DNA from: an uncultured Candidatus Saccharibacteria bacterium
GTDB taxonomy: Bacteria; Patescibacteriota; Minisyncoccia; Phycocordibacterales; UBA6065
DNA length: 64,000 nt
Direction of reading: 5' to 3'
Assembly: GCA_964368835.1 (NCBI GenBank)
Contig: CAYJCZ010000003.1
Location: 64,153 to 128,152 of the forward strand
The position numbers were made by a program, and so were the translations under genes. Of the stretch, positions 10,756-26,998 are shown piece after piece. The notes beneath the pieces were generated by a model. The model had not been told where the DNA came from and ran no database searches. It was given only the letters and a program-made list of their open reading frames with translations. The stretch's first letter is position 1. Each line of letters begins with the position of its first letter.

Positions 10756-10829
10756 TGCCGGATCGTCTAATGGTAGGACATGGGCCTTTGAAGCCTAGAA
10801 TCTTGGTTCGATTCCAAGTCCGGCAACCA
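10756..10829 (+). tRNA. tRNA-Gln (anticodon UUG)
   Basis: Cloverleaf folded by hand. Acceptor stem tgccgga/tccggca, anticodon loop cuUUGaa, T-loop gttcgattc, CCA encoded. Confidence 0.85.
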
Positions 10830-11544: not shown

Positions 11545-13011
11545 ATGTTGATAGATAAATACTTACAAAAAGATGACTCTGACAACTGGAATCTTATTCC
11601 TCCTGTATCTCTAGAATTACTTCGAAACATAAACTGTCATAAATTTGTTCTTTTTGTGATAGGCGCTATTTCTCGTGACGAATTACTTACAGACCCAAAG
11701 ACACAGAAAGCAAATGATCCAACCATAGACTTTACCTTTGGTAAAAAAGCTTTAGCTATTTCACAAAAAGAATTCACATCTATCTCTAATGTTGAAAATC
11801 TTCTTAATGTTGCAAACAAGGAATGTCAGGGAGGAAAAGCTTATGTAGGTCAGATATTAGATGCTAAAACAGGAGAACTCGCACACTCATTTATAGTTGA
11901 GAAAAACTCAGACAGAAAATTTGTTTGCTTTGAGAAAACAGGCTTTAAGCACTATCCTTTCAACGTTCATGGTTTAGAATCACTTCTCGATTTTGTTAAT
12001 GAGAAAGGTGAAAAGTCATATCAAGATCAAAAATGGAGGTTTGTGGAATTAAACACTTACCCAGAAGAAAAAATCTTTGTAGCTATTCACAGAATATTTC
12101 CACAAGCCACGATTAGTTCGGTGCTGAAATTCTCAAAAGGTTTGGCAAGTAACGTATACAAAGTTGAAATACGAGACCCAAGCAAGATTCTTGCTGTTAA
12201 ATTCTTCCCAAAAAAGATTGAACTGAGAGTTGAAAAAAGCTCACGAATCTCAAGTTACGTAAAAGAAAATGGCCTACCTTCGCCTCAAATCTACGAACTG
12301 ATAAAGGGAGATAGCGAGGGTTCTGTTGTTATGGATTGTTTGCTTGGCGAAGTCGCTTCCGAGGTATGGGAAACAGCATCTGTGGAGAACCGACAGATGA
12401 TCCTGGTTAATTCTGGAAAGATGTTGAAGATGATTCATGATCTAAAAATTCCTTCGTTTTGGATCCATCAAAAACATGAAGTTGCCTCCCCTGAAGAATG
12501 GGTTGAATGGACAAGGGTGCGAATTCAAAAGTATCTAGCGGCTGCGCAAGAGAATTTAGACAAAGAAATTATAGATTTCCTTAGAGCAAAATTTGCTAGA
12601 TTGCAGGATCTCTACAAGGCACACCCCGAGTTCCGCTTTGTTCCGCTTCACTGGGATTATCACTTTTCGAATATCAATATTGATGGGCACTTTGAGATAA
12701 GTGGTGTATTCGATTTTGATAACGCTATGAAAGGCCACGATATGGCAGACCTCGGGCAAACTTTTTACTGGCTCGTGACCCAGCAAAAGATATCCAAGGT
12801 GGAGATGTCTGAAAAATTCTTTACAGGCTACGGAGAATTGTCGTCACTCGATCGCGAGTTCGTATATCTTCACTTTCTCCTTTTCCTTGCTGGTGTAACA
12901 AGATCGACATGGCCGAAAGAAAATCTAAAGTGGCTAAACGAGCTACATGTGGGAGTATTAAAAGAATGTCTTAAAGGAGGATATTGTATACATACACCTG
13001 CTATACTTTAG
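11545..13011 (+). CDS. aminoglycoside/choline-kinase-like phosphotransferase (APH fold) with an N-terminal domain of unknown function
   Basis: 488 aa. The C-terminal half has the APH catalytic loop HWDYHFSNINID (HxDxxxxN) and a DFD metal-binding motif. The ~190 aa N-terminal domain is unassigned. Confidence 0.75.
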   Translation: MLIDKYLQKDDSDNWNLIPPVSLELLRNINCHKFVLFVIGAISRDELLTDPKTQKANDPTIDFTFGKKALAISQKEFTSISNVENLLNVANKECQGGKAYVGQILDAKTGELAHSFIVEKNSDRKFVCFEKTGFKHYPFNVHGLESLLDFVNEKGEKSYQDQKWRFVELNTYPEEKIFVAIHRIFPQATISSVLKFSKGLASNVYKVEIRDPSKILAVKFFPKKIELRVEKSSRISSYVKENGLPSPQIYELIKGDSEGSVVMDCLLGEVASEVWETASVENRQMILVNSGKMLKMIHDLKIPSFWIHQKHEVASPEEWVEWTRVRIQKYLAAAQENLDKEIIDFLRAKFARLQDLYKAHPEFRFVPLHWDYHFSNINIDGHFEISGVFDFDNAMKGHDMADLGQTFYWLVTQQKISKVEMSEKFFTGYGELSSLDREFVYLHFLLFLAGVTRSTWPKENLKWLNELHVGVLKECLKGGYCIHTPAIL

Positions 13012-13013
13012 AA

Positions 13014-13538
13014 ATGCCAGAGTTTAATTTTCACATCCTCCATCAAGACCTTTTTCCTAGCAGATCAACAGAACAATCCTTTACCTTTTCCAATCGTCCC
13101 ACGGTCAAAGTTGTTCTTAGGGATAGTGATAATAAAATATGTTTAACTTCTAAAAAAGGAAGCGGTTTTTATTTTCTTCCTGGGGGTGGTATAGAAAATA
13201 CTGAGGATCCGATAGAAGCATTAAAACGTGAATGTCTCGAGGAGGCTGGTTGCCATATTGAAGTAAAATCTAAAATTGGAACTATCATTGAACACCGAGA
13301 CGAAGCGAAAGAAAAAAGGATTGTATCTTGTTATATAGGAGATGTACTTGGTGAGAAGATATCTCCAACTTTGGCTGTAGGTGATGAAGAAGGTTTTGAT
13401 GTAATTTGGATATCAAGAGAAGAAGCCCTAAGGCTTTTGAAGAAACAGCTATCCTTAATTTCAGAGCAAACCATTAATTTCTATAATAGAAAATTTAATA
13501 CGACGCGTGATTTAAATATTTTGGGTAGTTTAGATTAA
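13014..13538 (+). CDS. NUDIX hydrolase
   Basis: Nudix box GGGIENTEDPIEALKRECLEEAG. Start taken at the ATG at 13014, directly after the upstream stop. The listed ORF start at 12984 would overlap. Confidence 0.75.
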   Translation: MPEFNFHILHQDLFPSRSTEQSFTFSNRPTVKVVLRDSDNKICLTSKKGSGFYFLPGGGIENTEDPIEALKRECLEEAGCHIEVKSKIGTIIEHRDEAKEKRIVSCYIGDVLGEKISPTLAVGDEEGFDVIWISREEALRLLKKQLSLISEQTINFYNRKFNTTRDLNILGSLD

Positions 13539-13665: not shown

Positions 13666-14415
13666 ATGTTAGAAAAATACCTCCAAGACATCGGATTTAC
13701 CGACAAAGAAGCAAAAGTCTATTTAACCCTACTTCAGGTTGATAATTCGTCGGTACTTGATCTTGCAAAGAAAACCAAGATAAAACGTCCCACAGTGTAT
13801 GTGGTACTTGAAACTCTTGCCAAAAAAGGCTTAGTAAGTGAATCAACTATAGGTAAAAAGGTTCATTATCATGCTGAATCACCTGAGCGACTTGCTACAT
13901 ATGTAGAAAGACAAAAAGTCATGCTTGATGACCAGGCCCGACAACTCAAAGATGTCATCCCCCAGATCAAGAGTATTCAGCGAGAAACTGGTGAAAAGCC
14001 AACTGTACAGTACTTCGAAGGAAAAGAAGGTATCAACAGCATGAACGAATCTCTTTATTATGACGAAGAAGAAGGTGGAACCGCCTATCTTGTATACTCG
14101 CGAGATCTGCTCGATAAGGTATTTCCACCCGAGGAGCGTAATAAGTTTAGAAATTCTCGTCTAAAGAAAAATATTAAGAGCAGAGTGCTCTATAACTATT
14201 CTCAAGGGGTCATTCCGTCTGATGAAACTGGTGAAAGGATAAAGATTGATGAAGTTCAGTACCCGTTTAGTTGTGACATAACTATTTATAAAGACAGGGT
14301 TCGTATCTCAATTTTAGGTAAAAAACTCTCGGGCATCTTTATTAAAAGCCAAGAATTCGCTGACACCCTAAAAAACCTATTCTCAGTTGCTTTTGATTCT
14401 CGTAAAAACAAATAG
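13666..14415 (+). CDS. TrmB-family transcriptional regulator
   Basis: 249 aa. The N-terminal wHTH (FTDKEAKVYLTLLQ...LDLAKKTKIKRPTVYVVLETLAKKGLV) matches the TrmB family. Confidence 0.8.
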   Translation: MLEKYLQDIGFTDKEAKVYLTLLQVDNSSVLDLAKKTKIKRPTVYVVLETLAKKGLVSESTIGKKVHYHAESPERLATYVERQKVMLDDQARQLKDVIPQIKSIQRETGEKPTVQYFEGKEGINSMNESLYYDEEEGGTAYLVYSRDLLDKVFPPEERNKFRNSRLKKNIKSRVLYNYSQGVIPSDETGERIKIDEVQYPFSCDITIYKDRVRISILGKKLSGIFIKSQEFADTLKNLFSVAFDSRKNK

Positions 14416-14794
14416 CCCCAATCACACTGGATTGGGGCTACCCTAGAAGAGGACAATTCGTTTAGTTTTTACGCTGACGAACGGTGTACTCTACTTGGAT
14501 GATTTGATTGATCTGCTCCACTTCGGAGAAGATTCAACAATATTGCTTTGAAGGAACAACTGATGATGTGAAGGTTTAGTCGCCCATGGTGGGTTACTCC
14601 TTTATTTTGAACCAACTTTACTGAACACTCGGCTTTTGGAGACTCGACGAAGTTTGGCAAGATGCCGCTTCCTGGTGGCTATGGGCTCACCAGGAAGCGG
14701 AACCCGCTTTACCTTAGTCGCTCATAGCGCCTCCTTTTTCAAGTGTTACCAATGGCAATTTTTTAAGGAATCAAATGATTACGCCATCAGTTCT
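14416..14794 (-). ncRNA. candidate minus-strand small RNA or leader unit (promoter to terminator, ~375 nt)
   Basis: Minus-strand promoter: TTGACA (plus coordinates 14830-14825), 17 nt, TAGACT (14806-14801). The transcript carries a 13 bp GC hairpin (14663-14705) flanked by two perfect-SD mini-ORFs, AAAGGAGG-ATGAGCGACTAA and AAAGGAG-ATGGGCGACTAA. It ends at the 14418-14440 hairpin. No ORF longer than 3 codons. Confidence 0.35.
14418..14440. terminator. hairpin terminator shared by trmB (+) and the convergent minus-strand unit
   Basis: ccccaatcacactggattgggg. Confidence 0.45.
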
Positions 14795-15069
14795 TTACCT
14801 AGTCTAGCAAATTTAAATCTAAATGTCAAGCTTTTTTGTCTTTTAGCTTTAATACCTATCTATACGCCAGTTTTAAGCCTATCTAGTAAGGAAATTTGAT
14901 AATTTCATATCTGTATTTATTTTTGACAGAAAAAACTTATTAGAGAATATTTAAAATATAAAGCAAGTTTATTTTGTAAATGTCAGGTGTATCATTTTTT
15001 ATTGTAGGTTATTAAACCATTATTTATAGGCATATAATAGGGTATTAAAATAGAATCTGTCAGATATAC

Positions 15070-15098
15070 TTGACAGAAATAGGGTTTAAGTATATACT
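15070..15098 (+). promoter_or_regulatory. strong sigma70-type promoter driving the hammerhead-ribozyme operon
   Basis: TTGACA (15070-15075), exactly 17 nt, TATACT (15093-15098). Confidence 0.65.
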
Positions 15099-15127
15099 AC
15101 TCAACAGATTATTCTTTGAGTCAAATT

Positions 15128-15222
15128 TGGTAACTTCTTAATGCCCCTGATACACGACCCGTCTCCCAGAAAATAACGAGACTGCTTGGCGAGTATCACC
15201 CGGAGGCATTAAGAAGTTACCA
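15128..15222 (+). ncRNA. structured 5' leader closed by a perfect 18 bp helix, function unknown
   Basis: tggtaacttcttaatgcc ... ggcattaagaagttacca pair perfectly over 18 bp. Inner helices ctgatac/gtatcac and cgtctc/gagacg. Starts about 25 nt after the predicted transcription start. Confidence 0.4.
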
Positions 15223-15474
15223 AAACCCCAACCCCAAATATAGAAACCATGGACTACAAAGTCTATCCTGACGGCACCGTTGAGGTGATCCGTCGCTATT
15301 AATCCTCCAGGAGGGATTCGTTCTACGTCGTAATGTGGTTTGAGCAAAATCCGGCTCTGTCAAAATAGGAAAAAAGTTTTGTCCCCATCTTTCTTAGAAA
15401 AGACGGCGAGCCATAAGGGAGCAGAACCTTTCGGGAGACAACCCGCGTAAAAACAACCAAGTCATCGACTTGGT

Positions 15475-15526
15475 TTCCGTCCCGAGATGTTTTCTCGGCT
15501 GATGAGTCCAAAAGGACGAAACGGAA
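15475..15526 (+). ncRNA. hammerhead ribozyme 1 (type III)
   Basis: Stem III ttccgt/acggaa, cleavage triplet GUC, stem I ccgaga(uguuu)ucucgg, core CUGAUGAG, stem II guccaaaaggac, then CGAAAC. Confidence 0.85.
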
Positions 15527-15606
15527 TGCTCTTTGAGAAATGTTGGTCTATACCTCCTCGCACTTAATTTTGAGTTCGAAGAGGTGTAGGCCATTCGTGT
15601 GGCCAT
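15527..15606 (+). repeat. module A' (diverged copy of the 84 nt post-hammerhead structured module)
   Basis: Aligns with 15931-16014. Stem positions differ with compensatory changes, and a C-A mismatch is kept at the same position in both hairpins. Confidence 0.6.
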
Positions 15607-15875
15607 CTAACCCTCCGCGGTTTTCTCCTCGACATACAGAGGGGTCCGTATGGAGTACCGCTAGATTCAGCTTTCATACCCGAAGGGTAATGACCGACTG
15701 AATAGTGTGGAAAAGAAACCCATGTCGGGTTTCATGAGGGAGACGTCCTAAAATTAAAGAATACATAAAAAATCTTTAATTACACGAATTATTTAGTTTC
15801 AAGCAAGGTTTAACTTAAAACCTGCCCGAAGGTTGTAGCAATTGAGTCTTCATGGACTCTTGCTCCCTTCGGATC

Positions 15876-15932
15876 CTGTCTCAGCCCAAGGCTGACTGAC
15901 GAGTCTTCCGAGCGATCGGCAAGACGAAACAG
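15876..15932 (+). ncRNA. hammerhead ribozyme 2 (type III)
   Basis: GUC site, stem I ucagcc(caa)ggcuga, core CUGACGAG, extended stem II with a bulged C capped by a GCGA GNRA tetraloop, CGAAAC, stem III cugu/acag. Confidence 0.85.
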
Positions 15933-16014
15933 AATGTTCTTTAAAAATCTGGCCTGTACCATCTTGAATTTAAGTTCTTGAGTTCAAAATGGTGTAGGTC
16001 AGTCGTGTGGCCAT
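15931..16014 (+). repeat. module A, copy 1 (84 nt conserved structured element after the hammerhead)
   Basis: 83 of 84 nt identical to 16828-16911. It folds into a long imperfect hairpin with closing helix ccugUacc/ggUGuagg. Confidence 0.8.
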
Positions 16015-16237
16015 TTCACCCAGAATTTCCTGCTGGACGATAGAGCAGGAAAGAATGACCCCAAGAGGGCAAAGTGATTCTGTCCAAGTTTCACTATAAG
16101 GGGCCAGTAACCCTAAGCGAAAAGCACACGAATATTTAGTTGGTTTAGAAGAAACCAACCAGGAGAGAGGTAGAACTCGACGGAATCCAAGAGGATTCTA
16201 TTAGTCGGCTACCAACCTCTCCTGCAAGTGTCTCCGT

Positions 16238-16285
16238 CTCAGACGGACTGATGAGCTTTCCGATTTGTTCGGCAAAGCGAAACAC
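16238..16285 (+). ncRNA. hammerhead ribozyme 3 (type III)
   Basis: gugu-C site, stem I uccguc(uca)gacgga, CUGAUGAG, stem II gcuuuccgauuuguucggcaaagc with a bulged C, CGAAAC, stem III gugu/acac. Confidence 0.85.
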
Positions 16286-16302
16286 AGATGTTCTTTGAAT
16301 AA

Positions 16303-16359
16303 GTTGGTTTCGGAAGCGAGTGCATAAATGTGCTATGTGCGCTCACTTCCGAAACCAAC
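16303..16359 (+). repeat. module B hairpin, copy 1 (~21 bp stem) between a hammerhead and the cargo ORF
   Basis: gttggtttcggaagcgagtgc ... gcgctcacttccgaaaccaac. Homologous hairpins at 17219 and 18434 show compensatory base-pair changes. Confidence 0.75.
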
Positions 16360-16414
16360 ACAATCGATAATCTCCCATTCGGGATGACACGGTTCACTGT
16401 GGTGAGGAATTCTT

Positions 16415-16732
16415 ATGGCTAACGCAACCAAATCCTCGAAGGTCTTAGTGACCTACACGCCGCATCGTCTCGGCCACTCGCTCGCCCAGAAGTTATGGGA
16501 GCGGGGCTTGTCGAAGGATCGGCAAGTTGGCCTCGACAGCGAGGCACATGTCATCTTGTATGACGAGGTAAAGGAAGCCGCTGAAGGCTTCGCGGAGGAT
16601 CCTCGGGTTCTCCGGATTGTGGTAGCGACGGAAATGCCGCCCCACCTTCCCAAGGGGATATTCTGGATCAAACCAGATGTCCAGGCTTTCACTAGCCTTA
16701 TCCGGACGTTAAATCCGGGAAGTGAAATGTAA
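16415..16732 (+). CDS. cargo ORF 1: GC-rich hypothetical protein (105 aa)
   Basis: GAGGAA SD 7 nt upstream of the ATG. GC is well above the window average. No recognisable domain. Confidence 0.55.
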   Translation: MANATKSSKVLVTYTPHRLGHSLAQKLWERGLSKDRQVGLDSEAHVILYDEVKEAAEGFAEDPRVLRIVVATEMPPHLPKGIFWIKPDVQAFTSLIRTLNPGSEM

Positions 16733-16771
16733 TGAGATGGGTACATATAAACCCCATCCACCCTGCAATAA

Positions 16772-16829
16772 AACGCAGGTTCTGTCCGAAGATGTATATC
16801 TTCGCTGATGAGCTCTAAAGAGCGAAACA
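16772..16829 (+). ncRNA. hammerhead ribozyme 4 (type III)
   Basis: uucugu-C site, stem I cgaagau(guau)aucuucg, CUGAUGAG, stem II gcucuaaagagc, CGAAAC, stem III uucugu/acagaa. Confidence 0.85.
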
Positions 16830-16911
16830 GAATGTTCTTTAAAAATCTGGCCTGTACCATCTTGAATTTAAGTTCTTGAGTTCAAAATGGTGTAGGCCAG
16901 TCGTGTGGCCA
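16828..16911 (+). repeat. module A, copy 2
   Basis: Near-identical to 15931-16014, with a single t/c difference. Confidence 0.8.
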
Positions 16912-17143
16912 TTCATCGGAGCTTGTGTTGGAACAAGTGCGTGATAAGTGCCGAAGGTAGATATAGACTGCAGTCTATATTTCTACTAAAAGGGTTGTCC
17001 TGATCAGGCAACCTAAGACTCTGGTGTCTCCCACCTAAGTACACACGAATAGTTTGTAGCGGTTTTTAGAAGAGAAACCGCTCCGGAGAAGGTCTGATGT
17101 TTGTTGAATCATGTGATTCCAAATGTCCACCTGTCTCCGGCTA

Positions 17144-17198
17144 GTGTCTCCGTTTTAAACGGACTGACGAGCTTTCCATTTTTGGCAAAGCGAAACAC
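17144..17198 (+). ncRNA. hammerhead ribozyme 5 (type III)
   Basis: gugu-C site, stem I uccguu(uua)aacgga, core CUGACGAG, stem II gcuuuccauuuuuggcaaagc with a bulged C, CGAAAC. Homologous to HHR3. Confidence 0.85.
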
Positions 17199-17218
17199 AG
17201 ATGTTCTTTGAATAAAAA

Positions 17219-17271
17219 GTTGGTTGTGGAAGATAGATCAGAAAATTTCTGGCTTTTCTTCCACAACCAAC
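17219..17271 (+). repeat. module B hairpin, copy 2
   Basis: gttggttgtggaag ... cttccacaaccaac, perfect 14 bp. Differs from copy 1 at covarying positions. Confidence 0.75.
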
Positions 17272-17328
17272 GCAACCGATAAGCTCCCGACAGGGATGAC
17301 ACGGCTCGCAATGGCGCGGAATCACTTC

Positions 17329-18009
17329 ATGAATACGAACAAACTAAATGTCTTGGTTTTTGATGACAGCAAGATTCATCGCGCCGCCGCGCAAGCCCAG
17401 CTCAAGGAGCACAACCTCACGGTCGTAGGCACCTACGATGAGACCCAGGAACTCATCACGCCGAAACTAGATTACAAACGGGCTGAGGGAATCGTCCGAA
17501 AGGAATTCCCGGATTTCAAGCCCTACGATAATGGCGTGAGCAAGGAGCAGAGAGACGCCTATCAGGCCGCGTGGAAGAGGGCCAACCAAGAGGCCACCAC
17601 GTATCCCACATTTGATGTGGTTCTCACCGATCTCCTCGTCCCTGCTTCAAAGCAGGCGCAAGGACCCGATGGATACCAATTCATCGGCCAGGAGATGCCG
17701 GTCGGGGTCTTTATCGCATTGCTTGCGGCAGCCAAGGGGAAAGTGAAACACGTAGCCGTCTTCACCGACAGCGACCATCACTCTCATCCGGCCTCTGCTT
17801 GCTTCGATAGATTCAACGAGGGCGAGGGCAATCCGACGCCGTTTATGGTGAATGGCTGTAAGTTCCTGCTTTCAAACAGCAGGGGCTGGGTCAACCATTT
17901 CGACCCCAACGATCTTGCCAAGGAATTGAAGTATGAAGAATACAAGGGCAGATCGGATACGGTAAGGGCGAAAAACTGGAAGGCCCTTCTTGACTACCTG
18001 CTCACGTAG
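17329..18009 (+). CDS. cargo ORF 2: GC-rich hypothetical protein with a CheY/receiver-like N-terminal segment
   Basis: Start moved to the ATG at 17329, after the conserved leader; the listed 17224 start lies inside the module B hairpin. The motifs NVLVFDDS and DVVLTDLLVP resemble a receiver fold but with atypical spacing. About 55% GC. Confidence 0.55.
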   Translation: MNTNKLNVLVFDDSKIHRAAAQAQLKEHNLTVVGTYDETQELITPKLDYKRAEGIVRKEFPDFKPYDNGVSKEQRDAYQAAWKRANQEATTYPTFDVVLTDLLVPASKQAQGPDGYQFIGQEMPVGVFIALLAAAKGKVKHVAVFTDSDHHSHPASACFDRFNEGEGNPTPFMVNGCKFLLSNSRGWVNHFDPNDLAKELKYEEYKGRSDTVRAKNWKALLDYLLT

Positions 18010-18120
18010 TCGTCGGCGCGGCAACTCCCGGGAGATCCAAGTGGATCGCGATGAACCGGCGGAGATGGAGAAAACCATCTTGGCAACAGAATCAAAACAC
18101 TGGGTCAGAAAAGATCCTGT

Positions 18121-18169
18121 CTGTCCATCGATGTGTATCGATGCTGATGAGCTCTAAAGAGCGAAACAG
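18121..18169 (+). ncRNA. hammerhead ribozyme 6 (type III)
   Basis: cugu-C site, stem I caucgau(gugu)aucgaug, CUGAUGAG, stem II gcucuaaagagc, CGAAAC. Stem III extends to aagauc/gaucuu. Confidence 0.85.
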
Positions 18170-18198
18170 AACGATCTTTAAAACCAAAAAAGGAGAAT

Positions 18199-18306
18199 TA
18201 TGAAAATCAAAATGCCGAACCGCATGGATACTTATCGCGCCGTGCGCAAAGTGCTTCCACCGCCGTCAAAAGCTTTTGCCCCAAGCAAAGGCAGAGGCGG
18301 TTATGA
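18199..18306 (+). CDS. cargo ORF 3: very small basic protein (35 aa) directly after HHR6
   Basis: Strong SD AAAGGAGA 7 nt upstream. Reads MKIKMPNRMDTYRAVRKVLPPPSKAFAPSKGRGGL. A +1 frame continues to 18349, so a longer frameshifted form is possible. Confidence 0.3.
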   Translation, partial: YENQNAEPHGYLSRRAQSASTAVKSFCPKQRQRRL

Positions 18307-18368
18307 CCGCAAGCGCGAGAAACGCGATTCCAGAATGGGGTTCGAATGATTTACATCAATGCTCTTTT

Positions 18369-18417
18369 CTGTTTCGAGATGTGTATCTCGACTGATGAGT
18401 CCTAAAGGACGAAACAG
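18369..18417 (+). ncRNA. hammerhead ribozyme 7 (type III)
   Basis: cugu-U site, stem I ucgagau(gugu)aucucga, CUGAUGAG, stem II guccuaaaggac, CGAAAC. Confidence 0.85.
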
Positions 18418-18433
18418 ATGTTCTTTGAATATA

Positions 18434-18484
18434 TTGGTTTCGGAATAAAGTCCACTCGATGAGCTGACTTTATTCCGAAACCAA
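18434..18484 (+). repeat. module B hairpin, copy 3
   Basis: ttggtttcggaataaagtc ... gactttattccgaaaccaa, perfect 19 bp. Third covarying variant. Confidence 0.75.
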
Positions 18485-18563
18485 AGCCACTGATAAGTCC
18501 CTCTAGTTCCTATTTCATAGGGATAAGAGATGACACAGCTGTGCCAAGGGGAGGAATACCACC

Positions 18564-18869
18564 ATGAAGAAATTCATCCTGTCAGTGTTCGCCCTGTTGG
18601 CCTTCTCCGCGGCTCTGTTCGCCACCGATGACAAGAAGCCCTCCACGCCCTTAGGGTTCAAGGAGGCCGAGATCATCGGCACGGTCAAGGAGATCGTGGT
18701 CGTCAACGCCGATCGTAACCTCCAGTATTGGACGGTGAAGGTCGACGGCAAGGACGCGCCCTACCACCTCTTCACCGACGAAAAGGGCAAAGTCGGCGAG
18801 CGCATCGTCATTTACGTGATGGTGCGGGTAGGCGGCCAAGTGAGCTGGATCAAAGTGAGGCCCCTTTGA
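18564..18869 (+). CDS. cargo ORF 4: GC-rich small secreted protein (101 aa, signal peptide)
   Basis: GGGAGG SD. N-terminal MKKFILSVFALLAFSAALFA signal peptide. High GC. Confidence 0.55.
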   Translation: MKKFILSVFALLAFSAALFATDDKKPSTPLGFKEAEIIGTVKEIVVVNADRNLQYWTVKVDGKDAPYHLFTDEKGKVGERIVIYVMVRVGGQVSWIKVRPL

Positions 18870-19347
18870 TCAGTGAGTTGCGGAACTCAACAAAACCCGC
18901 TCTTGCATCCCGATCGATGCAAGTATATGTAATGTAGCTATTTCATCTGAATCAGATGGAATATCGGTCCCAAGCCCGCGTAAATACAGAGGGTCATTAT
19001 CCAAGCCCAGAAAGAGAGCTCCGCAAGGAGATGGGAAATGCTTGAGCGAATCCTGATCAGGTTTGCCATCGTGTTAGATCCAGCGGAATCTGGACGCGTT
19101 GTCACAACGACGCACGACTGAATCTGCTATTTCCAGCAGATAAGTTGTCGGCATTAAGATTGCCGAAAGTTCATGGCTGAACATTCATTGCTCTTTACAT
19201 CAAAACATCAAAACTTAGGCGCCGGGAGAATCGAGAAAATCTCCCTTGCCTGTCACGACTCGAATCACTCTTGTGTAAATCTAAGACAGTAGGCATCCTG
19301 AAAAGGAAGAAGCCCTACCGAGATTTATAAAGGAGGTTTAGAAGATA

Positions 19348-19380
19348 ATGACGAATGACCGTTCCAATCCTTGCACATAG
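19348..19380 (+). other. micro-ORF (10 aa) behind a perfect Shine-Dalgarno
   Basis: AAAGGAGG followed 8 nt later by ATGACGAATGACCGTTCCAATCCTTGCACATAG (MTNDRSNPCT). Confidence 0.2.
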
Positions 19381-19590
19381 TGCAGGCTACTGATTGATAA
19401 GCCCCGGGAGCATACGGAACGGTAAAAATGTTACGTTTTAAAACGACAATCCTACAACCAGCAAATTGGTTGGGTAACATCAAACATCTCGCCGGAGGGT
19501 TCGCCTAAAAAACGAACCCTCCCTTTATCAGGCTTGCGAATGGTTCGTCGGCCTGTAGAGACCGCTCTTTCACAACATATTAAGGAAATT

Positions 19591-19866
19591 ATGAACCTCA
19601 AGATATTCATTCCCGGAGATAGCCCTGTATCACGGGTGCTCCGTCAGACCTTGGATAAGAAGATCCAAGTTGAAAGTCAGGAAGAAGCGAGCGTGGTGAT
19701 CGCGCTTACTGTGGAGTCTCTGTTTGACCACTACCTGAAGTCAACTCCACCCACACAAGATTTCGTGCTCTTCAGCTTAGAGTACGTGGAAAAGCTTCCA
19801 GCGAGGGTAGTCTGGATCGAGGGAAGCCTCGTCCCGCTCCTTGCGTATCTTCAAACAAAAGTGTAA
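19591..19866 (+). CDS. cargo ORF 5: hypothetical protein (91 aa)
   Basis: AAGGAA SD before the internal ATG at 19591. The listed ORF start at 19534 has no SD. Confidence 0.45.
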   Translation: MNLKIFIPGDSPVSRVLRQTLDKKIQVESQEEASVVIALTVESLFDHYLKSTPPTQDFVLFSLEYVEKLPARVVWIEGSLVPLLAYLQTKV

Positions 19867-19915
19867 AAAACTTCGAGAGACAACTCGTAAAAACCCGAGA
19901 CTAAAGGCTCGGTAT

Positions 19916-19963
19916 CTGTAGCGAAGTGTAACTTCGCCTGATGAGTCCAAAAGGACGAAACAG
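19916..19963 (+). ncRNA. hammerhead ribozyme 8 (type III)
   Basis: cugu-A (GUA) site, stem I gcgaagu(guaa)cuucgc, CUGAUGAG, stem II guccaaaaggac, CGAAAC. Confidence 0.85.
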
Positions 19964-20012
19964 AATGTTCTTTAAATAATTTTTCTTCCCGCACTGTAAA
20001 CCAAATAGAAAA

Positions 20013-20195
20013 ATGAAAACAACTGCAATCATAGTCGGACTCGTGCTAGGCACCTGGGGATTAGTCGGCGGATACTTATTGATCCGTGATCGTCATAACA
20101 GCGTTGCCCCACGAACCATTGGTATCGTGAGTCTCGTTGGCATGATGAGTTCCGCGATCGTCTTGACGCTCGCAATCGCCACCATGGCAGAGTAA
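20013..20195 (+). CDS. cargo ORF 6: small membrane protein (60 aa, two TM segments)
   Basis: Hydrophobic ORF 50 nt after HHR8. Confidence 0.4.
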   Translation: MKTTAIIVGLVLGTWGLVGGYLLIRDRHNSVAPRTIGIVSLVGMMSSAIVLTLAIATMAE

Positions 20196-20228
20196 GACTA
20201 ATCGGTTCTAGGTTATCCTCAAAACCTA

Positions 20229-20277
20229 CTGTTTCGGAATGTGTATTCCGACTGATGAGCTCAAAAGAGCGAAACAG
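20229..20277 (+). ncRNA. hammerhead ribozyme 9 (type III)
   Basis: cugu-U site, stem I ucggaau(gugu)auuccga, CUGAUGAG, stem II gcucaaaagagc, CGAAAC. Followed by a 13 bp hairpin (20300-20347) and then the ORF. Confidence 0.85.
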
Positions 20278-20401
20278 AATGATCTTTAAAAAACTTCAAA
20301 CTTCGTCATAGCAGAAAGCGGCTACTCCTGGCCTCTCCCTGCTATGACGAAACCATTACGGCCAAGTCCTCTAGCGAAAACTAAATCAAGGATATAAACT
20401 C

Positions 20402-21199
20402 ATGAAAACTGAGGCAAAAACCATGACACCCGGCCAAGCTTTCCAGCTTATGGCTGTTATCGCTCAGAAACTCGGTAAAATCGGTCTCGACTTCGATTCG
20501 GCAGAAATGCTCATTGGCAAACCAGACCTTACTCTTAAGCGCTTACGAGCACTTAAGAGTGAAAAGATAGTGAATCCTGCTAATGTGGCCACCAATCGGT
20601 TTACAGTGATCGAAAGTTTGGAAATTGAAAATTTGCCAAACTGCACTTCAATGGATCAGGTTCTCGATTATCTGTTACTCGACAAGCAAATTGAAAAATA
20701 TTTGAAGTCGCCTGAATATGATTCGATGAAATACAATGACCACCATAGCTATTGTGCAAGGGATAAATCCCTTTTCAAAAGCACAACGGTGAATCAGCCA
20801 ATGTATCCTCTTCCTATCTTCAGAGAGGCTCTCGATTACTGTGGGCCAGATAATGGGATTTGGGAACTTCTGTATCGTCGTAAGGCACTTTTTACGATCG
20901 ATGAAGTCTTAGGTTTTCTCTGTGGATTAATAAACACAGGTGAAGATCCATTAGGATTGCTGGAATCGGGTTACAGCACGGTTTGGTTTCCTGTTGTTCT
21001 TCATCGTCCAGGAGAATTCTGGGATATCAAGACCGAAGCCGTTACTCTCGTAAGGATTAGTAAAGGCGAGTTGTTGAAAAAACAACTCACCTGGCATGTC
21101 GGATTTTACGGCGTGCACAATGTGATCTCCATACGAGAAGGGGTCTCTCAAATTGTTTATTTTGCAAATGATCCGCGCATTCGCTCGCGTCAGGAGTAA
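20402..21199 (+). CDS. cargo ORF 7: hypothetical protein (265 aa)
   Basis: AAGGA SD. No recognisable domain. Confidence 0.6.
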   Translation: MKTEAKTMTPGQAFQLMAVIAQKLGKIGLDFDSAEMLIGKPDLTLKRLRALKSEKIVNPANVATNRFTVIESLEIENLPNCTSMDQVLDYLLLDKQIEKYLKSPEYDSMKYNDHHSYCARDKSLFKSTTVNQPMYPLPIFREALDYCGPDNGIWELLYRRKALFTIDEVLGFLCGLINTGEDPLGLLESGYSTVWFPVVLHRPGEFWDIKTEAVTLVRISKGELLKKQLTWHVGFYGVHNVISIREGVSQIVYFANDPRIRSRQE

Positions 21200-21212
21200 A
21201 ATAACCTCGAAA

Positions 21213-21239
21213 CCGTGTCTCACAAACACGGTTTTTTTA
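21213..21239 (+). terminator. rho-independent terminator closing the hammerhead operon
   Basis: aaaccgtgtctcacaaacacggttttttt. Confidence 0.8.
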
Positions 21240-21258
21240 TTGGTATACTTTAGATATG
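21228..21258 (+). promoter_or_regulatory. second copy of the extended -10 leaderless promoter (tttttattgGTATACTttagatATG)
   Basis: Identical at 23 of 24 nt to 10950-10979. Placed immediately before the NUDIX gene ATG. Confidence 0.55.
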
Positions 21259-21702
21259 GATAAGTTACTAAATACTCGAATTCGAGCAGTTGCAATTGTC
21301 ATCAAAGATGACTCTGTTTTGCTTATGCATAGAATTAATAAAGATCGAGGTGAATATTGGACATTCATTGGCGGTGGAGTCGAGGAAGGTGAATCTGTCG
21401 AAGATGCTGTAATACGAGAGTTGTATGAAGAGGCTTCGTTAAAGGCTTCAATAAATAAATTATTTACCATTATTAAAAACGATGGGTCCGCAAGATATCA
21501 CCATACTGCGGAGCATCACTTTTATTTGTGTGACTATATTTCAGGAACACCTAAATTTGGAAATGGGCCAGAGCACATGACGGCTGACAATATCTACGAT
21601 CCTCAGTGGGTAAATATTGATATGTTTAAAAAGTTAAATCTTTACACAGAGGAAGTAAAAAATAAGTTAATTGATTATCTTGAAAATAAAAAAGATAGAT
21701 AA
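21256..21702 (+). CDS. NUDIX hydrolase
   Basis: Nudix box GGGVEEGESVEDAVIRELYEEAS. Confidence 0.8.
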   Translation: MDKLLNTRIRAVAIVIKDDSVLLMHRINKDRGEYWTFIGGGVEEGESVEDAVIRELYEEASLKASINKLFTIIKNDGSARYHHTAEHHFYLCDYISGTPKFGNGPEHMTADNIYDPQWVNIDMFKKLNLYTEEVKNKLIDYLENKKDR

Positions 21703-21705
21703 TGT

Positions 21706-22689
21706 ATGCAAGAGCTTTTAACAAAAATTAATGAGTTATACGGGAAAATAGTTACTAATCCTCAAAAAGTCACAGGAGGATTTTTGAGCGAGAACTATTT
21801 TCTAGAAGAAGGTGATAAGAGATACTTTCTCAAAAAATATAGATTCAATAACGCCAAGAGGATTGAAGAGGTTCACGCATCTAAAAAATACTTTTCTGAC
21901 GGAGGTATTCCCGTAATTCTACCCATTCCTCTTTTAAACGGTAAGACCTATTTTTCTTATAATGAAGGTTATTATGCACTCTTTCCATTTATTGATGGTA
22001 GACAAGTAGATAGGGGTAATATGAACCATGCTGAAATTATTTCCCTCGGTGAGATGTTGGGAAGAATTCATTTACTCGGTAAGGTGGCAAAAGTGGCAAA
22101 TGAAGATCGTTTTAAAATTGAAAATAAAGAAAAGACGTTTAAAAAGATAGAGGATATTCTAATCGAAATACACAATAAAGACACTTTGAGTAATTTTGAT
22201 AAAACAGCTGTTGAAAACATTGAACTCAAGAAACAACTCCTTTTATCTAACACATTAACTTTTGAGAATCTTAATTTACCTTGTGATCATTTAATACATG
22301 GTGACTATCTTGATCATAATGTGTTTTTTGATAATCAGCATAAAGTTTTTGCTGTCTTTGACTTTGAAAAGACGAGCTACTCACCTAGAACATATGAACT
22401 GTTCAGGTCTATGATCTACGGAATGATTAGTGATGATTTTTCAGAAAAAAGCTTGGGTGACGCAAAAATATATCTTGATGCGTATGTCCGTATTTATACT
22501 ATATCAAAAGATGAGATTAAAAGAGGTTTACAGTTATTCCTACTCAAATCTATTCATGGATTTTGGGTTGAAAGTGAACATTATCTAAAAAACAATAACC
22601 GAGTAGATGAATTCTTGTTTAACGATTTAAAGAAGATTAAATACTTATCAAAGAATCTAGAAAAGTTTACTAAATTTCTTACAGGGTAA
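21706..22689 (+). CDS. APH/choline-kinase-like phosphotransferase
   Basis: Catalytic loop LIHGDYLDHNVFFD (HGDxxxxN) and a DFE metal-binding motif. 327 aa. Confidence 0.8.
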   Translation: MQELLTKINELYGKIVTNPQKVTGGFLSENYFLEEGDKRYFLKKYRFNNAKRIEEVHASKKYFSDGGIPVILPIPLLNGKTYFSYNEGYYALFPFIDGRQVDRGNMNHAEIISLGEMLGRIHLLGKVAKVANEDRFKIENKEKTFKKIEDILIEIHNKDTLSNFDKTAVENIELKKQLLLSNTLTFENLNLPCDHLIHGDYLDHNVFFDNQHKVFAVFDFEKTSYSPRTYELFRSMIYGMISDDFSEKSLGDAKIYLDAYVRIYTISKDEIKRGLQLFLLKSIHGFWVESEHYLKNNNRVDEFLFNDLKKIKYLSKNLEKFTKFLTG

Positions 22690-22716: not shown

Positions 22717-24012
22717 CTAGCTGATATCATCTTTAAGAAAAATCTGTTTTTCTTTTAGAGTTATTTTACTTTTCAGACACCCCAACAGCTCCCTCTTTTC
22801 TGAATCATTTCCTTCTCTCAACACAAATTTTGTGTAATTTCGTATATCAATATCACCAACTACGATTTTTTCTTTGATGCCGAGCACCATTCGCTGAAAA
22901 CTTTTGAATCGTTCAACCTCAGTCTTAATCTGATCTTTTATACCTATCTCATCTAGGTCTATTGCATCCATTAATTTCTCAAACTGTTTGATTAGATCTT
23001 CCTCATTGATATATCCGCACTTGCATTTCTTATCCCTGACTTTTGTACATATGTAATAAACATGTCTATTCATAGTACCGTCTCTCAATTTCTTAAATTT
23101 CTCGTCAGCGGTTATCCCTGAACCACACAATCCACAAGTCATTAGTTTGGTAAAGGCGAATTCTTTATTTTCCGTCCTCACAAAAAGACTTTTTACCTGC
23201 TGTTGTGCCAGATCAAACAATTCTTTATTTATTAGAGGAATATGCTTGCCTGTATACCAATTACCGCTCTTCACTGGGTACTCAAAGACTCCGTAGTAAA
23301 AAGGGTTCTGTAGTATTAGGTATACATTTCCTAAAGTCAGACCTTTCTTACCTGTAATGCTCTTAAAATTCAAATCGAATTTCAACCAGTGATATATTTT
23401 GTTACCGCTCCATTTTTCATAAGCAACTTTTTCAAATATTTTTCTAATAACTGGACCTCGTTCGGGATCAACAATCGCCTGACACTTCCTATCCATATGT
23501 CTTTCGTTGAGATACCCCACAGGAGGTTGTCCTGGCCGTAGTCCCATTTCACACCTTGTCCTCAAACCACGCTTCACATTGATACTCTTGTTGTCATTTT
23601 CAAGTTTGGCTTGCGAACAAAGAATCATGAGGAGGAACTTCTCGTTTGGTGAGTTCCTAAATTGTTGTCCGTAGGTTTTGATCTCAATAAGGTGTTTTTG
23701 ATCCATTAAATCAACTACAGATCCTAGATCTCCAGCATTACGACTCAACCTATCGGGTGCCCATGTGAGGATTCCATTAAATTTATCTCCTCTTATATCC
23801 TCTAATATTTCTTTAAATACTGGTCGTTGCCCAGAATCTTTGGCCGAATGAGATTCTCTCCGAATATCAATAACTTCAAGTTGATCACGCTCGGCAATTT
23901 TCAGCATTTCCTTAACCTGTGATTCTATTGATAAGGCTTGTTTCTCGTCTTGCTCAGTACTCTTTCTTGCGTATAGACAATATCGCACCTTGATCGTTGG
24001 AATCACAGCCAT
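22717..24012 (-). CDS. large serine recombinase (resolvase domain, recombinase domain and zinc ribbon)
   Basis: Catalytic region YARKSTEQDEKQALSIESQ; C-terminal CxxC...CxC zinc ribbon. Start set at Met33 (24012). In-frame alternatives at 24045 and 24108. Confidence 0.85.
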   Translation of the reverse strand: MAVIPTIKVRYCLYARKSTEQDEKQALSIESQVKEMLKIAERDQLEVIDIRRESHSAKDSGQRPVFKEILEDIRGDKFNGILTWAPDRLSRNAGDLGSVVDLMDQKHLIEIKTYGQQFRNSPNEKFLLMILCSQAKLENDNKSINVKRGLRTRCEMGLRPGQPPVGYLNERHMDRKCQAIVDPERGPVIRKIFEKVAYEKWSGNKIYHWLKFDLNFKSITGKKGLTLGNVYLILQNPFYYGVFEYPVKSGNWYTGKHIPLINKELFDLAQQQVKSLFVRTENKEFAFTKLMTCGLCGSGITADEKFKKLRDGTMNRHVYYICTKVRDKKCKCGYINEEDLIKQFEKLMDAIDLDEIGIKDQIKTEVERFKSFQRMVLGIKEKIVVGDIDIRNYTKFVLREGNDSEKRELLGCLKSKITLKEKQIFLKDDIS

Positions 24013-24228
24013 TTTGCCTATAAGGGCTGTCGTTTGTGTTTCCATACGACCATTAATGACAGAACCGTTGGTTTTGCTAAGCGAGTGATGTTGGCAACGT
24101 GTAGACAACTATCCTTAGCAAAATAGCTAATCAGCGATACTATGTTGGACTGGTAACGGTTTTGGCGTTATCATAATCCATGACAATTCAATAGGTAAAG
24201 TAGCCTAACCCATCGAGCAATCGGTGGC

Positions 24229-25107
24229 ATGGTGAAAGTTAGTCGATCAAGCATAAAAAACCCGTCATGGGGTTGCTTGATCGCCGTATGGGGAAACCTG
24301 TACGAGGGACTTCGGTTCCTACCCGTGGCGGGCTTTTTGTTCGCCGCACATTACAAGCCGATCAAGCAAAATATGCACATTGTTTTTATCTTACTTTCCT
24401 TTTTGGCATTTCTAGGATTTTTTGCAGGACTCATTAAACCTTCGTGGTTTAAGATGAAATCCCGCAGACAATCATCAGGAGTGTTTGCCGGAACTTTCGT
24501 CCTTCTTATGATCCTTACGATCATCGCTTCTCCGGCAGAAGAAGTGCCTCCATCTGTTGTCGTTCAGTCAACTGCGCCAGCAGTAGCTCAACCTGTCGTA
24601 GCGACGGAGCCAGTTCAGCCGCCAAAGCCAAAAACCCGAGAAGAGCTCATTACGCAAAAGATAGAAGCTTCACTTGGGGCTACGACCAACACAAGCAAAC
24701 CGCGCGTAGTTTCCGTCGAACTCACAGCCTACAAATCATCTGAATTGAGTACTTATGGATATGCCTCGACCAATACCGTCCAAGGCGCATTCATCAAGAC
24801 AAATGCGAGCGAGAATCTCACATCGAATCTCCAGAAGATGACCTTGCATAAAGAAGCGGCAAAAATATTTCAAGACACTTTCTCATCTTTCTCACAGATT
24901 GGTGATGTGATTATTTGGGAAAGACTGCCCGTGAGCGACCAATATGGAAATCAAAAGGATGATACGGCGATTGTATATGCTATGAGCCGATCATTGTATG
25001 ACAAAATTAACTGGGCAAGCTTCTCATACACAACCTTGCCAGATCTCCTGAAGTCAGAGGGTCATACCGATGACCGAAATTCGTATTACGAAGCGATCCG
25101 ATTCTAG
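24229..25107 (+). CDS. membrane-anchored hypothetical protein
   Basis: 292 aa with TM helices near the N-terminus (a possible internal start at 24373), then a Pro/Thr/Val-rich linker and a C-terminal domain. Confidence 0.5.
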   Translation: MVKVSRSSIKNPSWGCLIAVWGNLYEGLRFLPVAGFLFAAHYKPIKQNMHIVFILLSFLAFLGFFAGLIKPSWFKMKSRRQSSGVFAGTFVLLMILTIIASPAEEVPPSVVVQSTAPAVAQPVVATEPVQPPKPKTREELITQKIEASLGATTNTSKPRVVSVELTAYKSSELSTYGYASTNTVQGAFIKTNASENLTSNLQKMTLHKEAAKIFQDTFSSFSQIGDVIIWERLPVSDQYGNQKDDTAIVYAMSRSLYDKINWASFSYTTLPDLLKSEGHTDDRNSYYEAIRF

Positions 25108-26574: not shown

Positions 26575-26998
26575 CGTTTTTCTTAAGGTATATCTCCTGG
26601 ATCTTTTGTTCCGTTTCTTCCTTAGGTATATCCAAGGAAGCGAGGCGTAAAGCTTCGCGGATTACAACCTCTTGTTCTGGAGTTACTTTGTCCTGTTTGA
26701 TCTCGGTAGTCACATGAAGACTGTCCTTATACTTCGGATTCCTATGTCGCAACCAAAAGCTGATTGCCGACCAATTCTTTTCTTGGATGAGAGAAAGGAG
26801 CTGGCTTTCGCTCATATCGTTTACGAATGCTTCACCATCAGTCATTGCCTCATCCATAGCTTTCTTAAATTCCTCATCTTCTTTTCGCCACCTATACACA
26901 CTATTGCGAGAAATGGCAGACTTTTCACACGCTACTTGAACGATAGGAATACGCCGAAGCTCGGCAAGGAACTGATCCCTCTTTTTATCTTTCTTCAT
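26561..26998 (-). CDS. HTH protein, possibly a terminase small subunit or phage regulator
   Basis: 145 aa. HTH-like QVACEKSAISRNSVYRWRK. Position immediately upstream of the terminase large subunit. Confidence 0.45.
   Translation of the reverse strand: MKKDKKRDQFLAELRRIPIVQVACEKSAISRNSVYRWRKEDEEFKKAMDEAMTDGEAFVNDMSESQLLSLIQEKNWSAISFWLRHRNPKYKDSLHVTTEIKQDKVTPEQEVVIREALRLASLDIPKEETEQKIQEIYLKKNDDGK

Follow-up and report, generated by a model that had tools for sequence, protein, structure and literature searches.

Introduction

Hammerhead ribozymes that occur in clusters and flank genes have been described in bacterial prophage regions, where triple arrays cleave both in vitro and in vivo (PMC3088659). 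It was proposed in 2011 that such clustered hammerheads cut long transcripts into single-gene mRNAs (PMC3088659). Self-cleaving ribozymes are common in bacteria, yet, glmS aside, their roles have been called 'largely elusive' (PMC6765202). Here we describe an array of nine type III hammerheads and one probable twister-P1 ribozyme in a 64-kb stretch of DNA (contig CAYJCZ010000003.1; the whole stretch is hereafter called the window) from an uncultured, ultra-small bacterium of the candidate phyla radiation (CPR, or Patescibacteria). The array lies on one strand between a single convincing promoter, which begins at position 15070, and a single convincing terminator, which ends at 21242. Judging from the sequence and its comparison with related loci, the array is probably expressed as one transcript, which its ribozymes would cut into autonomous, end-protected RNAs.

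Like the clusters reported by Perreault and colleagues in 2011, the locus has several co-oriented hammerheads that flank single genes or short blocks of functionally unrelated genes within a presumed polycistronic RNA. Unlike those clusters, it contains ten ribozymes of two classes and lies in CPR/Patescibacteria-like chromosomal DNA and not within a recognisable prophage. Phage genes begin 3 kb downstream of the array, past NUDIX, APH and serine recombinase genes. It also differs in combining a conserved TrmB-family regulator and promoter with a recurrent boundary unit, three non-coding units and foreign cargo. Hammerheads and twisters have been reported as neighbours before, and the two classes lie within a few kilobases on one strand in the window and in two related loci, L029 and L046. 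In contrast to these loose neighbourhoods, the window locus is a delimited operon with a promoter, a regulator, a terminator and repeated boundaries.

Three further systems invite comparison. The RiboJ element consists of a hammerhead and a 23-nt hairpin upstream of a ribosome-binding site (RBS), and it normalises the 5′ untranslated region (PMC7536230). The same order of hammerhead, stable hairpin and RBS is found after hammerheads 3, 5, 7 and 9 of the array, and the primary leader likewise places a hairpin before the Shine-Dalgarno (SD) sequence; after hammerheads 6 and 8, an RBS or an open reading frame (ORF) follows directly. The array departs from RiboJ in being natural, in its nine-fold repetition, in having an extra conserved single-stranded motif and in carrying a hairpin on the upstream side as well. 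In an integron, one promoter heads a series of promoterless, short cassettes, mostly of unknown function and uneven in base composition, with repeated structured boundaries. The array may resemble this arrangement, with one strong promoter, no internal consensus promoter in our scan and cargo that differs between related arrays. It has no IntI, attI or attC and no sign of site-specific insertion, there is no tyrosine recombinase at 11-24 kb of the window, and its boundaries are ribozymes, which act, if at all, on RNA. Finally, as in retrozymes and viroid-like RNAs, some structured non-coding RNAs, each a few hundred nucleotides long, have type III hammerheads at both ends; unlike in retrozymes, the bracketed RNAs differ from one another, lie in a protein-coding operon and show no sign of multiplication (PMC4918200).

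The defining elements of an integron are thus missing, and the label of a prophage cluster cannot be applied with confidence. Clustered gene-flanking hammerheads, their cleavage, the processing hypothesis and the co-occurrence of hammerheads with twisters are already known. New are the scale of the array and its two ribozyme classes, its setting in a CPR chromosome, the conservation of its regulator and operator/promoter, the ribozyme-bounded non-coding RNAs, the compositionally foreign cargo, and a hairpin-ribozyme-motif unit that is common to hammerheads, twisters and the transcript start. A preliminary description of this DNA, made from the sequence alone, held that the array goes beyond known clusters, which is correct for its degree and context and incorrect for its principle, the processing idea having been published in 2011. 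In the literature searched, we found no paper linking hammerheads to Patescibacteria or to TrmB.

Results

Nine hammerheads and a probable twister on the same strand

Both strands of the window were searched with a structural descriptor, which asked for the core CUGANGA...GAAA, a stem I of at least 4 bp, stems II and III of at least 3 bp each and an NUH triplet. This identified exactly nine type III hammerheads, all on the plus strand between 15475 and 20277, and none on the minus strand or elsewhere in the 64 kb. The core CUGA(U/C)GA...GAAA is present in all nine; loops cap stems I and II, and stem III is open. Stem I has 6-8 bp, stem II has either 4-5 bp or an extended, bulged form, and stem III has 4-7 bp with strands that are near-identical across the array (CUGU/ACAG). 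The cleavage triplet is GUC in six copies, GUU in two and GUA in one. The preliminary description had listed nine co-oriented hammerheads with a full core, GUC, GUA or GUU triplets, a 4-7 bp stem III and three stem II families, and the descriptor scan agrees with it on each of these points. Its start positions all fall within 10 nt of ours, with 16238 to be corrected to 16228 and 16772 to 16779.

It had also expected nine matches to the Rfam Hammerhead_3 model (RF00008). At the gathering score of that model (48.5 bits) the window contains none, and reporting by E-value across the whole window yields seven plus-strand matches (36.3-48.3 bits, E 1.5e-7 to 3.8e-4). The hammerheads at 16228 and 17144, which have a long bulged stem II, go unreported by the Rfam model even then. 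Compared with the seed, the loops are short and that of stem II has 4 nt, which accounts for the sub-threshold scores; the core is not defective. A lineage-specific covariance model, R1, which was made from 30 related CPR hammerheads of other genomes, detects all nine (26.8-75.9 bits, E 7e-18 to 2e-4) and has no other match in the 64 kb. In addition, a pattern that joins the core to the downstream motif described below matches nine times in the window and not once in 100 shuffles.

Hammerhead 1 (15475-15526; Rfam 48.3 bits, R1 71.6 bits) has its predicted cut after C15481, and hammerhead 4 (16779-16833; Rfam 46.2 bits, R1 72.9 bits) after C16786. The three copies with a long bulged stem II are hammerhead 2 (15876-15932, with a GCGA loop; Rfam 36.3 bits, R1 33.0 bits), hammerhead 3 (16228-16285; R1 28.1 bits, E 1e-4) and hammerhead 5 (17144-17198; R1 26.8 bits, E 2e-4), for which cleavage is predicted after C15880, C16232 and C17148, respectively. 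Hammerhead 6 (18120-18170) would be cut after C18125 and hammerhead 8 (19915-19964), the copy with the GUA triplet, after A19920. The GUU triplet is found in hammerhead 7 (18368-18418; R1 75.9 bits), with a predicted cut after U18373, and in hammerhead 9 (20229-20277), with a predicted cut after U20233. Hammerheads 6, 8 and 9 were each found by Rfam, by the descriptor and by R1.

The stems covary among the 30 related copies, in which stems I and II show two to four pair types per position. Double-change cells number 95, compared with 23 in shuffles, and the covariation score of 0.62 drops to 0.20 in shuffles and does not exceed 0.13 when the partners are slid. Changes on both sides are seen for 12 of the 15 pairs.

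The tenth ribozyme, which the preliminary description overlooked, is a probable twister-P1 (RF03160) on the plus strand at 18926-18998, with a predicted cut between U18930 and A18931. It scores 54.8 bits (E 1.5e-9), which is below the Rfam gathering score of 67.2, and its P1 has only three good pairs. The twister blocks UAA...GGUCCCAAGCCCG...GUAAA...GAGGG are present. Rfam identified three further twister-P1 ribozymes on the array strand of related loci, two in L029 and one in L046. The window twister aligns with these, and the alignment contains compensatory changes in P2 (UGUA/UACA versus UGCA/UGCA) and in P4.

A three-part unit at the predicted cut sites

The predicted cut sites share a unit of three parts, which consists of a hairpin just 5′ of the ribozyme, the ribozyme itself and the leader motif UGUUCUUUGA. 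Of 110 hammerhead copies, 82% have a hairpin of at least 5 bp whose end lies 0-4 nt upstream of stem III, and random positions in these loci give 33%. The corresponding figures are 59% versus 16% for hairpins of at least 6 bp and 37% versus 3% for those of at least 8 bp. Eight of the nine window hammerheads have such a hairpin; the search flags five, and the long imperfect hairpins before hammerheads 2, 3 and 5 were read directly from the sequence.

The leader motif takes the form (A/U)UG(U/A)UCUUU(G/A)A in the window and lies 2-6 nt past stem III in all nine hammerheads. Throughout the 64 kb, TGNTCTTTRA occurs only at leader-motif sites. Among 42 hammerheads that had not been selected for the motif, 23 have TCTTT within 22 nt, compared with about 3% expected by a hand estimate from base composition, and most of the others have near variants of it. 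The motif directly follows three of the four twisters, and both the window and L069 have it behind the conserved promoter; in several loci it adjoins the SD sequence or the start codon. Its presence at these other sites places it outside the hammerhead proper.

The twister/motif sites of the relatives lie at 4262-4375 and 2598-2740 in L029 and at 1770-1848 in L046. One combination of twister and motif continues into a long hairpin like that of module B, a leader element described below, and another into the start codon of an ORF91 homolog. Just 5′ of the second L029 twister, UCUUUGA forms the 7-nt loop of an 11-bp hairpin.

Several candidate roles for the motif were rejected. Pairing with stem II as an off-switch does not fit, as the motif is kept where stem II differs (L003 GAGUAAAAACUC, L006 GUCGGAAACGAC and L014 GGCCUGACAGGCC), and extension of stem III applies to hammerhead 6 only (AAAGAUC/GAUCUUU). 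A pseudoknot between the motif and a loop, considered for the module C hairpin of L009 and L091, was set aside given the bulged stem, the GNRA or CAAA loop and the covariation of that hairpin's own. A role as the -35 box of internal promoters fails for lack of a -10 box at the right spacing. The preferred site of Bacillus subtilis CspB is GTCTTTG/T (PMC1904285), and UCUUUG equals it at six of seven positions, a resemblance in sequence only. There is no cold-shock protein gene near the arrays in the locus DNA that we examined. That the motif stands alike behind hammerheads, twisters and the transcript start may point to a factor that reads the 5′ region of the processed RNAs.

One promoter, a presumed operator and one terminator

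The array is headed by a sigma-70-type promoter, TTGACA-17-TATACT (15070-15098, plus strand), which has 11 of 12 matches and is the best in 14300-21500. It ends at an intrinsic terminator with a 10-bp stem and a T run (21209-21242; 21209-21235 in the scan), the only convincing plus-strand terminator in that interval. Both elements had been named in the preliminary description, and both are the best plus-strand sites of their kind there. The scan found no other convincing plus-strand promoter or terminator between 15098 and 21209, with the qualification that it relied on E. coli-like signals, which may not be those of the host. An alignment of the spacer from nine loci reads aTGTCAAAAgTACTTGACAAA-N17/18-TATAMT, with the hexamers and their spacing conserved. 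In these nine loci the -35 hexamer forms the right half of a palindrome, TGTCAA-N6-TTGACA. In the window, sequence inspection and an inverted-repeat scan place a palindrome, TCTGTCA-N8-TGACAGA, over the -35 box (15056-15077), where it is the presumed operator.

Upstream, at 13666-14415 on the plus strand, lies a gene for a 249-residue protein of the TrmB family (Pfam TrmB, E 4e-16) with a putative regulatory role. Homologs with 49-63% identity are found in many loci, co-oriented with the array and 0.9-2 kb upstream of the first hammerhead; more distant homologs are in divergent orientation. Informative loci are those with at least 2 kb of upstream DNA, and 23 of the 39, a few of which duplicate one contig, have a TrmB homolog no more than 3 kb upstream, co-oriented in 16. 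The TrmB-like protein presumably binds the palindromic operator, and the overlap of operator and promoter suggests that it acts as a repressor. The TrmB genes are AT-rich, with a GC content of 0.33-0.39 (L069, L046, L042, L029, L033, L053, L078, L002, L006 and L007). This includes the gene of L069, despite a GC content of 0.47-0.54 in the surrounding contig. At every locus the array is GC-richer than its own TrmB gene. The preliminary description missed the features that are conserved between loci, which are the leader motif, the pre-ribozyme hairpin, the operator/promoter and the regulator of the TrmB family.

Non-coding units, modules and cargo

The transcript would open with a 5′ leader (15110-15223) that contains UAUUCUUUGA at 15110-15119 and a long hairpin with arms at 15127-15145 and 15205-15223. 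The array then runs, 5′ to 3′, from hammerhead 1 with unit A1 and hammerhead 2 with unit A2 to hammerhead 3 with module B and ORF105, hammerhead 4 with unit A3 and hammerhead 5 with module B and ORF226. It continues with hammerhead 6 and ORF49, hammerhead 7 with module B and ORF101, the twister and ORF91, hammerhead 8 and ORF60, and hammerhead 9 with a hairpin and ORF265, followed by the terminator. In the predicted folds of the released RNAs, stems I and II at the 5′ end stay intact.

Three of the units carry module A, namely A1 (15482-15880, 399 nt), A2 (15881-16232, 352 nt) and A3 (16787-17148, 362 nt). The preliminary description assigned single-gene cargo to the array, a claim that fails for these three, which have no credible ORF. 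They are mutually homologous by repeat analysis and alignment, and A2 and A3 share 99% identity over their first 91 nt; the fold z-score is -7.2 for A1 and for A2, much better than for shuffled sequence. Module B is a leader that consists of the motif, a 14-20-bp hairpin, two small hairpins and an SD sequence. The distal part of its long hairpin varies between copies with pairing kept. It precedes ORF105 (unit 16286-16732, ORF 16415-16732, with repeat families D4, D6 and D7), ORF226 (unit 17199-18009, ORF 17329-18009) and ORF101 (unit 18419-18869, ORF 18564-18869). The preliminary description had noted dedicated modules; A and B have no Rfam match and, by blastn with the hammerheads masked, are absent from 92 loci, which makes them private to this one. 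As candidates for widespread families they were also rejected in exact-pattern scans of viral contigs, where A gave no match and B two chance matches.

The remaining units have other leaders. ORF49 (18200-18349), which encodes a very basic small protein, has a strong SD sequence. ORF91 (19591-19866) is preceded by a structured non-coding leader of about 590 nt (unit 18999-19866, fold z-score -4.35). ORF60 (20013-20195) encodes a small hydrophobic, membrane-like protein, and ORF265 (20402-21199), an orphan, follows a leader of motif and hairpin (unit 20278-21199). A further module at the 3′ side is shared by 15428-15475 and 19868-19912, before hammerheads 1 and 8, and consists of a small hairpin with an AGACAA loop, UAAAAAC and a second hairpin; the 3′ end of the TrmB gene (14400-14443) also has CGUAAAAAC with a hairpin. 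In the ORF91 leader, GAUUGAUAAGCCCCGGGAGCAUACGG (19395-19425) resembles the module B element CGAUAAGCUCCC...GGGAUGACACGG and may be the remnant of another module B.

None of the seven cargo proteins, ORF49 and ORF60 included, has a match in Pfam, PHROG or PADLOC, and none, including ORF265, has a sequence match in the PDB. ORF226 has more than 220 homologs, of which the named ones come from CPR phyla. Its AlphaFold2 (AF2) model is of high confidence (pLDDT 92.9), and it is receiver-like, with weak similarity to receiver domains by profile and by fold. The idea that hammerheads travel with ORF226 was rejected, as the homologs in L021-L026 have no hammerhead. Judged by sequence, the hydrophobic N-terminus of ORF101 looks like a signal peptide. 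ORF91 has a homolog with 52% identity in L029, which likewise has a twister before it and a hammerhead after it, and ORF265 has two homologs among 5.8 billion proteins. The base composition of the cargo is foreign to the host. GC content at third codon positions (GC3) is 0.56-0.84 in six ORFs (0.65 in ORF105, 0.67 in ORF226 and 0.84 in ORF101) and 0.43 in ORF265, compared with 0.24-0.38 in flanking and other host genes.

Related arrays in other genomes

Public collections were scanned with the pattern of core plus leader motif. Among 2.9 million viral contigs it matched a single stretch, and neither Rfam nor R1 recognises that stretch as a hammerhead. In contigs that represent one genome per species it matched 18 stretches, 17 of which carry titles such as Patescibacteria, Paceibacterota or Saccharibacteria. 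A further 64 stretches came from metagenomes. The matches in L001/L064 (a 224-kb viral contig) and in L013 (Methylophaga) were rejected, as they are not hammerheads by R1. In the related loci R1 finds about 130 hammerheads, and 111 are distinct when the nine of the window are included. Co-oriented arrays hold two to six hammerheads, with six in L003/L069, four in L009 and in L046, and three in L029, L042, L048 and L074, and some (L029 and L046) also hold twisters. With ten ribozymes the window has the largest array found; many comparison loci are short and most are truncated, so this number is not evidence of exceptional size. Exact matches to proteins of the window were confined to short Logan contigs of run ERR4405439, in which the array is interrupted by contig ends.

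Two of these arrays contain other features. In L074 a match to the tmRNA model (5529-5662, minus strand; 51.2 bits, gathering score 47) lies inside the array, between hammerheads on the same strand at 6172-6230 and 4678-4730. The leader of the four-hammerhead array of L009 (2222-2060, minus strand) has two tiny ORFs with good SD sequences and similar products, MAMYDEVRCRGQPGDDVL and MTMYNQVRCRGQPYSAPEDLIN, the first of which ends within a copy of the GUUCUUUGA motif.

Genomic surroundings

Pairs of genes for an APH kinase and a NUDIX hydrolase flank the TrmB gene and the array, in the order APH-NUDIX at 11545-13538 and NUDIX-APH at 21256-22689, so that the block is arranged as if it lay inside a duplicated APH/NUDIX gene pair. 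A prophage-like block on the minus strand follows at 22717-29470, with genes for a large serine recombinase (22717-24108), a large terminase (25108-26574), a small terminase (26561-26998), an N6/N4 DNA methylase (26985-28316) and a CI/LexA-like repressor (28775-29470). A LOOT RNA (RF03000; 24202-24320, plus strand; 73.7 bits versus a gathering score of 46.4) lies between the serine recombinase and terminase genes and overlaps the start of an ORF at 24229-25107. The window has seven tRNA genes, at 10756-10826, 51294-51374, 54108-54179 and 56118-56201 and in a cluster of three at 63304-63614. The tRNA gene at 10756 marks the left edge of a lower-GC stretch (11-15 kb), in which the TrmB gene lies and which stops where the array begins.

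Discussion

Our analysis favours a reading in which positions 15070 to about 21242 would form one transcription unit with a conserved promoter, presumably regulated by the TrmB-like protein. An RNA of about 6.1 kb would be made, and the nine hammerheads and the twister-P1 would fold and cut co-transcriptionally at ten sites. About 11 products would result, namely a leader of about 377 nt, structured non-coding RNAs of 399, 352 and 362 nt, and seven monocistronic mRNAs of 554, 977, 248, 557, 990, 313 and about 1009 nt. At each cut the upstream RNA would be left with the pre-ribozyme hairpin at its 3′ terminus (hairpin-NNGUH with a 2′,3′-cyclic phosphate), and the ribozyme would be kept on the downstream RNA. 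Cleavage by a type III hammerhead or a P1 twister leaves the 3′ product with almost all of the ribozyme, so that the new 5′-OH would sit immediately at the foot of stem I, a stable hairpin. The leader motif would come next, often followed by a long hairpin, and then the SD sequence. The stability and translation of each cassette would be set by its own ends and not by those of its neighbours. The array would thus be a natural equivalent of the RiboJ insulator, serving cargo of foreign composition, and it would work as was proposed for clustered hammerheads in 2011. The single-unit reading is strengthened by the conservation of the promoter, by the covariation of the hammerhead stems across about 110 related copies and by the hairpins 5′ of most copies and 3′ of many, and we consider it probable.

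Several points weigh against this reading. Weak internal promoters are possible in a CPR organism, given the E. coli-like consensus of the scan, and some transcripts might terminate at a hairpin followed by CUUUAU (about 19476-19525). None of the nine hammerheads reaches the curated Rfam threshold, and two of the nine are detected by the custom model only. The 30 copies behind the covariation analysis were picked by a descriptor that requires pairing, which inflates the percentage of paired positions. Three hammerheads have a stem III of just 4 bp, so their cleavage rates could be low or conditional. Lastly, such RNA ends should be poor substrates for 5′-end-dependent RNases and for 3′ exonucleases, an expectation drawn from general RNase biology and not from CPR organisms in particular.

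The alternative that survives best concerns DNA, and it would extend the reading of a ribozyme-cut transcript rather than exclude it. The locus might be a platform for cassette capture, analogous to an integron, which we regard as possible and rather doubtful. Genes and RNAs of foreign origin would be inserted, duplicated and shuffled where ribozyme and motif form a boundary, behind one regulated promoter, and RNA cleavage would serve to express them. GC3 of the cargo (0.43-0.84 versus 0.24-0.38) varies from cassette to cassette, and arrays behind TrmB genes that are 50-63% identical hold almost wholly different cargo. The exceptions have the look of shared cassettes: the order twister-ORF91-hammerhead is found in the window and in L029, an ORF226 homolog follows a hammerhead in L086, and a small LPAGEIPQNP protein is common to L046 and L029. 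In other settings, homologs of ORF226 occur as ordinary genes, each under a promoter of its own and without a ribozyme. Common ancestry followed by loss could equally give shared cassettes, and selection on RNA structure could partly explain the GC-rich composition. Capture would also fit the 91-nt duplication in A2 and A3, 99% identical, which begins inside a hammerhead, and the leader motif, which also stands first behind the promoter. Four arrays have serine recombinase genes in their vicinity, but no recombinase is consistently adjacent, and that of the window adjoins the prophage and is most simply its integrase. Neither attC-like sites nor target duplications were found.

A second alternative keeps the cleavage and gives it a different purpose. 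Slow or regulated ribozymes could switch off cassettes or tune their stoichiometry, so that cleavage would serve differential decay or conditional control. The nine hammerheads do vary in stem III length, triplet and stem II architecture. Processing has been suggested to yield transcripts that differ in stability or translation (PMC6765202), and slow variants may be conditional (PMC3088659). The hairpins at both new ends fit protection better; we found neither a ligand-binding domain nor an alternative pairing that covaries with the ribozyme, and the motif does not covary with stem II. We consider this explanation quite unlikely.

A third alternative would make the array an accessory operon of a prophage or mobile element ('moron' or early), with ribozymes that serve phage gene expression. 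The serine recombinase (22717-24108), the LOOT RNA, the terminases, the methylase and the CI-like repressor all lie within 1.5-8 kb downstream, and a serine recombinase homolog is found downstream of the L069 array too. The published hammerhead clusters sit in prophage regions, and the TrmB gene is AT-rich even in the GC-richer host of L069. However, no cargo protein has a meaningful PHROG match, and NUDIX and APH genes of host-like composition separate the array from the recombinase. Within the stretches examined, phage genes are absent from most loci with a TrmB gene and an array. The pattern occurs once in 2.9 million viral contigs, in a stretch that is not a hammerhead, compared with 17 of 18 species-genome stretches from Patescibacteria and 64 from metagenomes. 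Taken together, we give this explanation only a slim chance.

Finally, A1-A3 and perhaps other units might be circularised and act in trans or selfishly, in the manner of retrozymes or viroid-like RNAs, as they are structured non-coding RNAs of 350-400 nt (z about -7) bracketed by type III hammerheads, the computed pairing of a unit's 3′ end with part of its own 5′ ribozyme gives a hybrid stem III of 3-9 bp, and 5′-OH and cyclic phosphate ends are substrates of hammerhead self-ligation or RtcB-type ligases. This is very improbable, given a hybrid stem III of just 3-4 bp for the three non-coding units, the absence of module A from every other locus and hence of any sign of spread, the lack of a reverse transcriptase or replication function nearby, and the failure of Perreault et al. 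to find circular or spliced products of bacterial clusters when they sought them (PMC3088659).

Returning to the ribozyme-cut transcript, a broader picture can be drawn around it, which we regard as unlikely when taken as a whole. Patescibacteria could possess a TrmB-gated 'ribozyme integron' of their own, an open-ended array in which foreign genes and structured RNAs would be captured, duplicated and reshuffled at hairpin-ribozyme-UGUUCUUUGA boundaries. The boundary itself would make each cassette autonomous, end-protected and translatable. In this picture a trans-acting factor would recognise the motif, perhaps a protein with a cold-shock domain, and some of the excised non-coding units might act in trans or as circles.

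The locus offers a clonable, delimited system, with one regulator, one operator/promoter, ten ribozymes, one terminator and a three-part boundary that can be mutated. Its boundaries might provide natural, pre-tested insulator parts for synthetic operons. It also provides a concrete system for asking what bacterial ribozymes do. The layout recurs across Patescibacteria, which have tiny genomes and make up a large, little-understood share of bacterial diversity, and its study would reveal how these organisms express the genes that they acquire.

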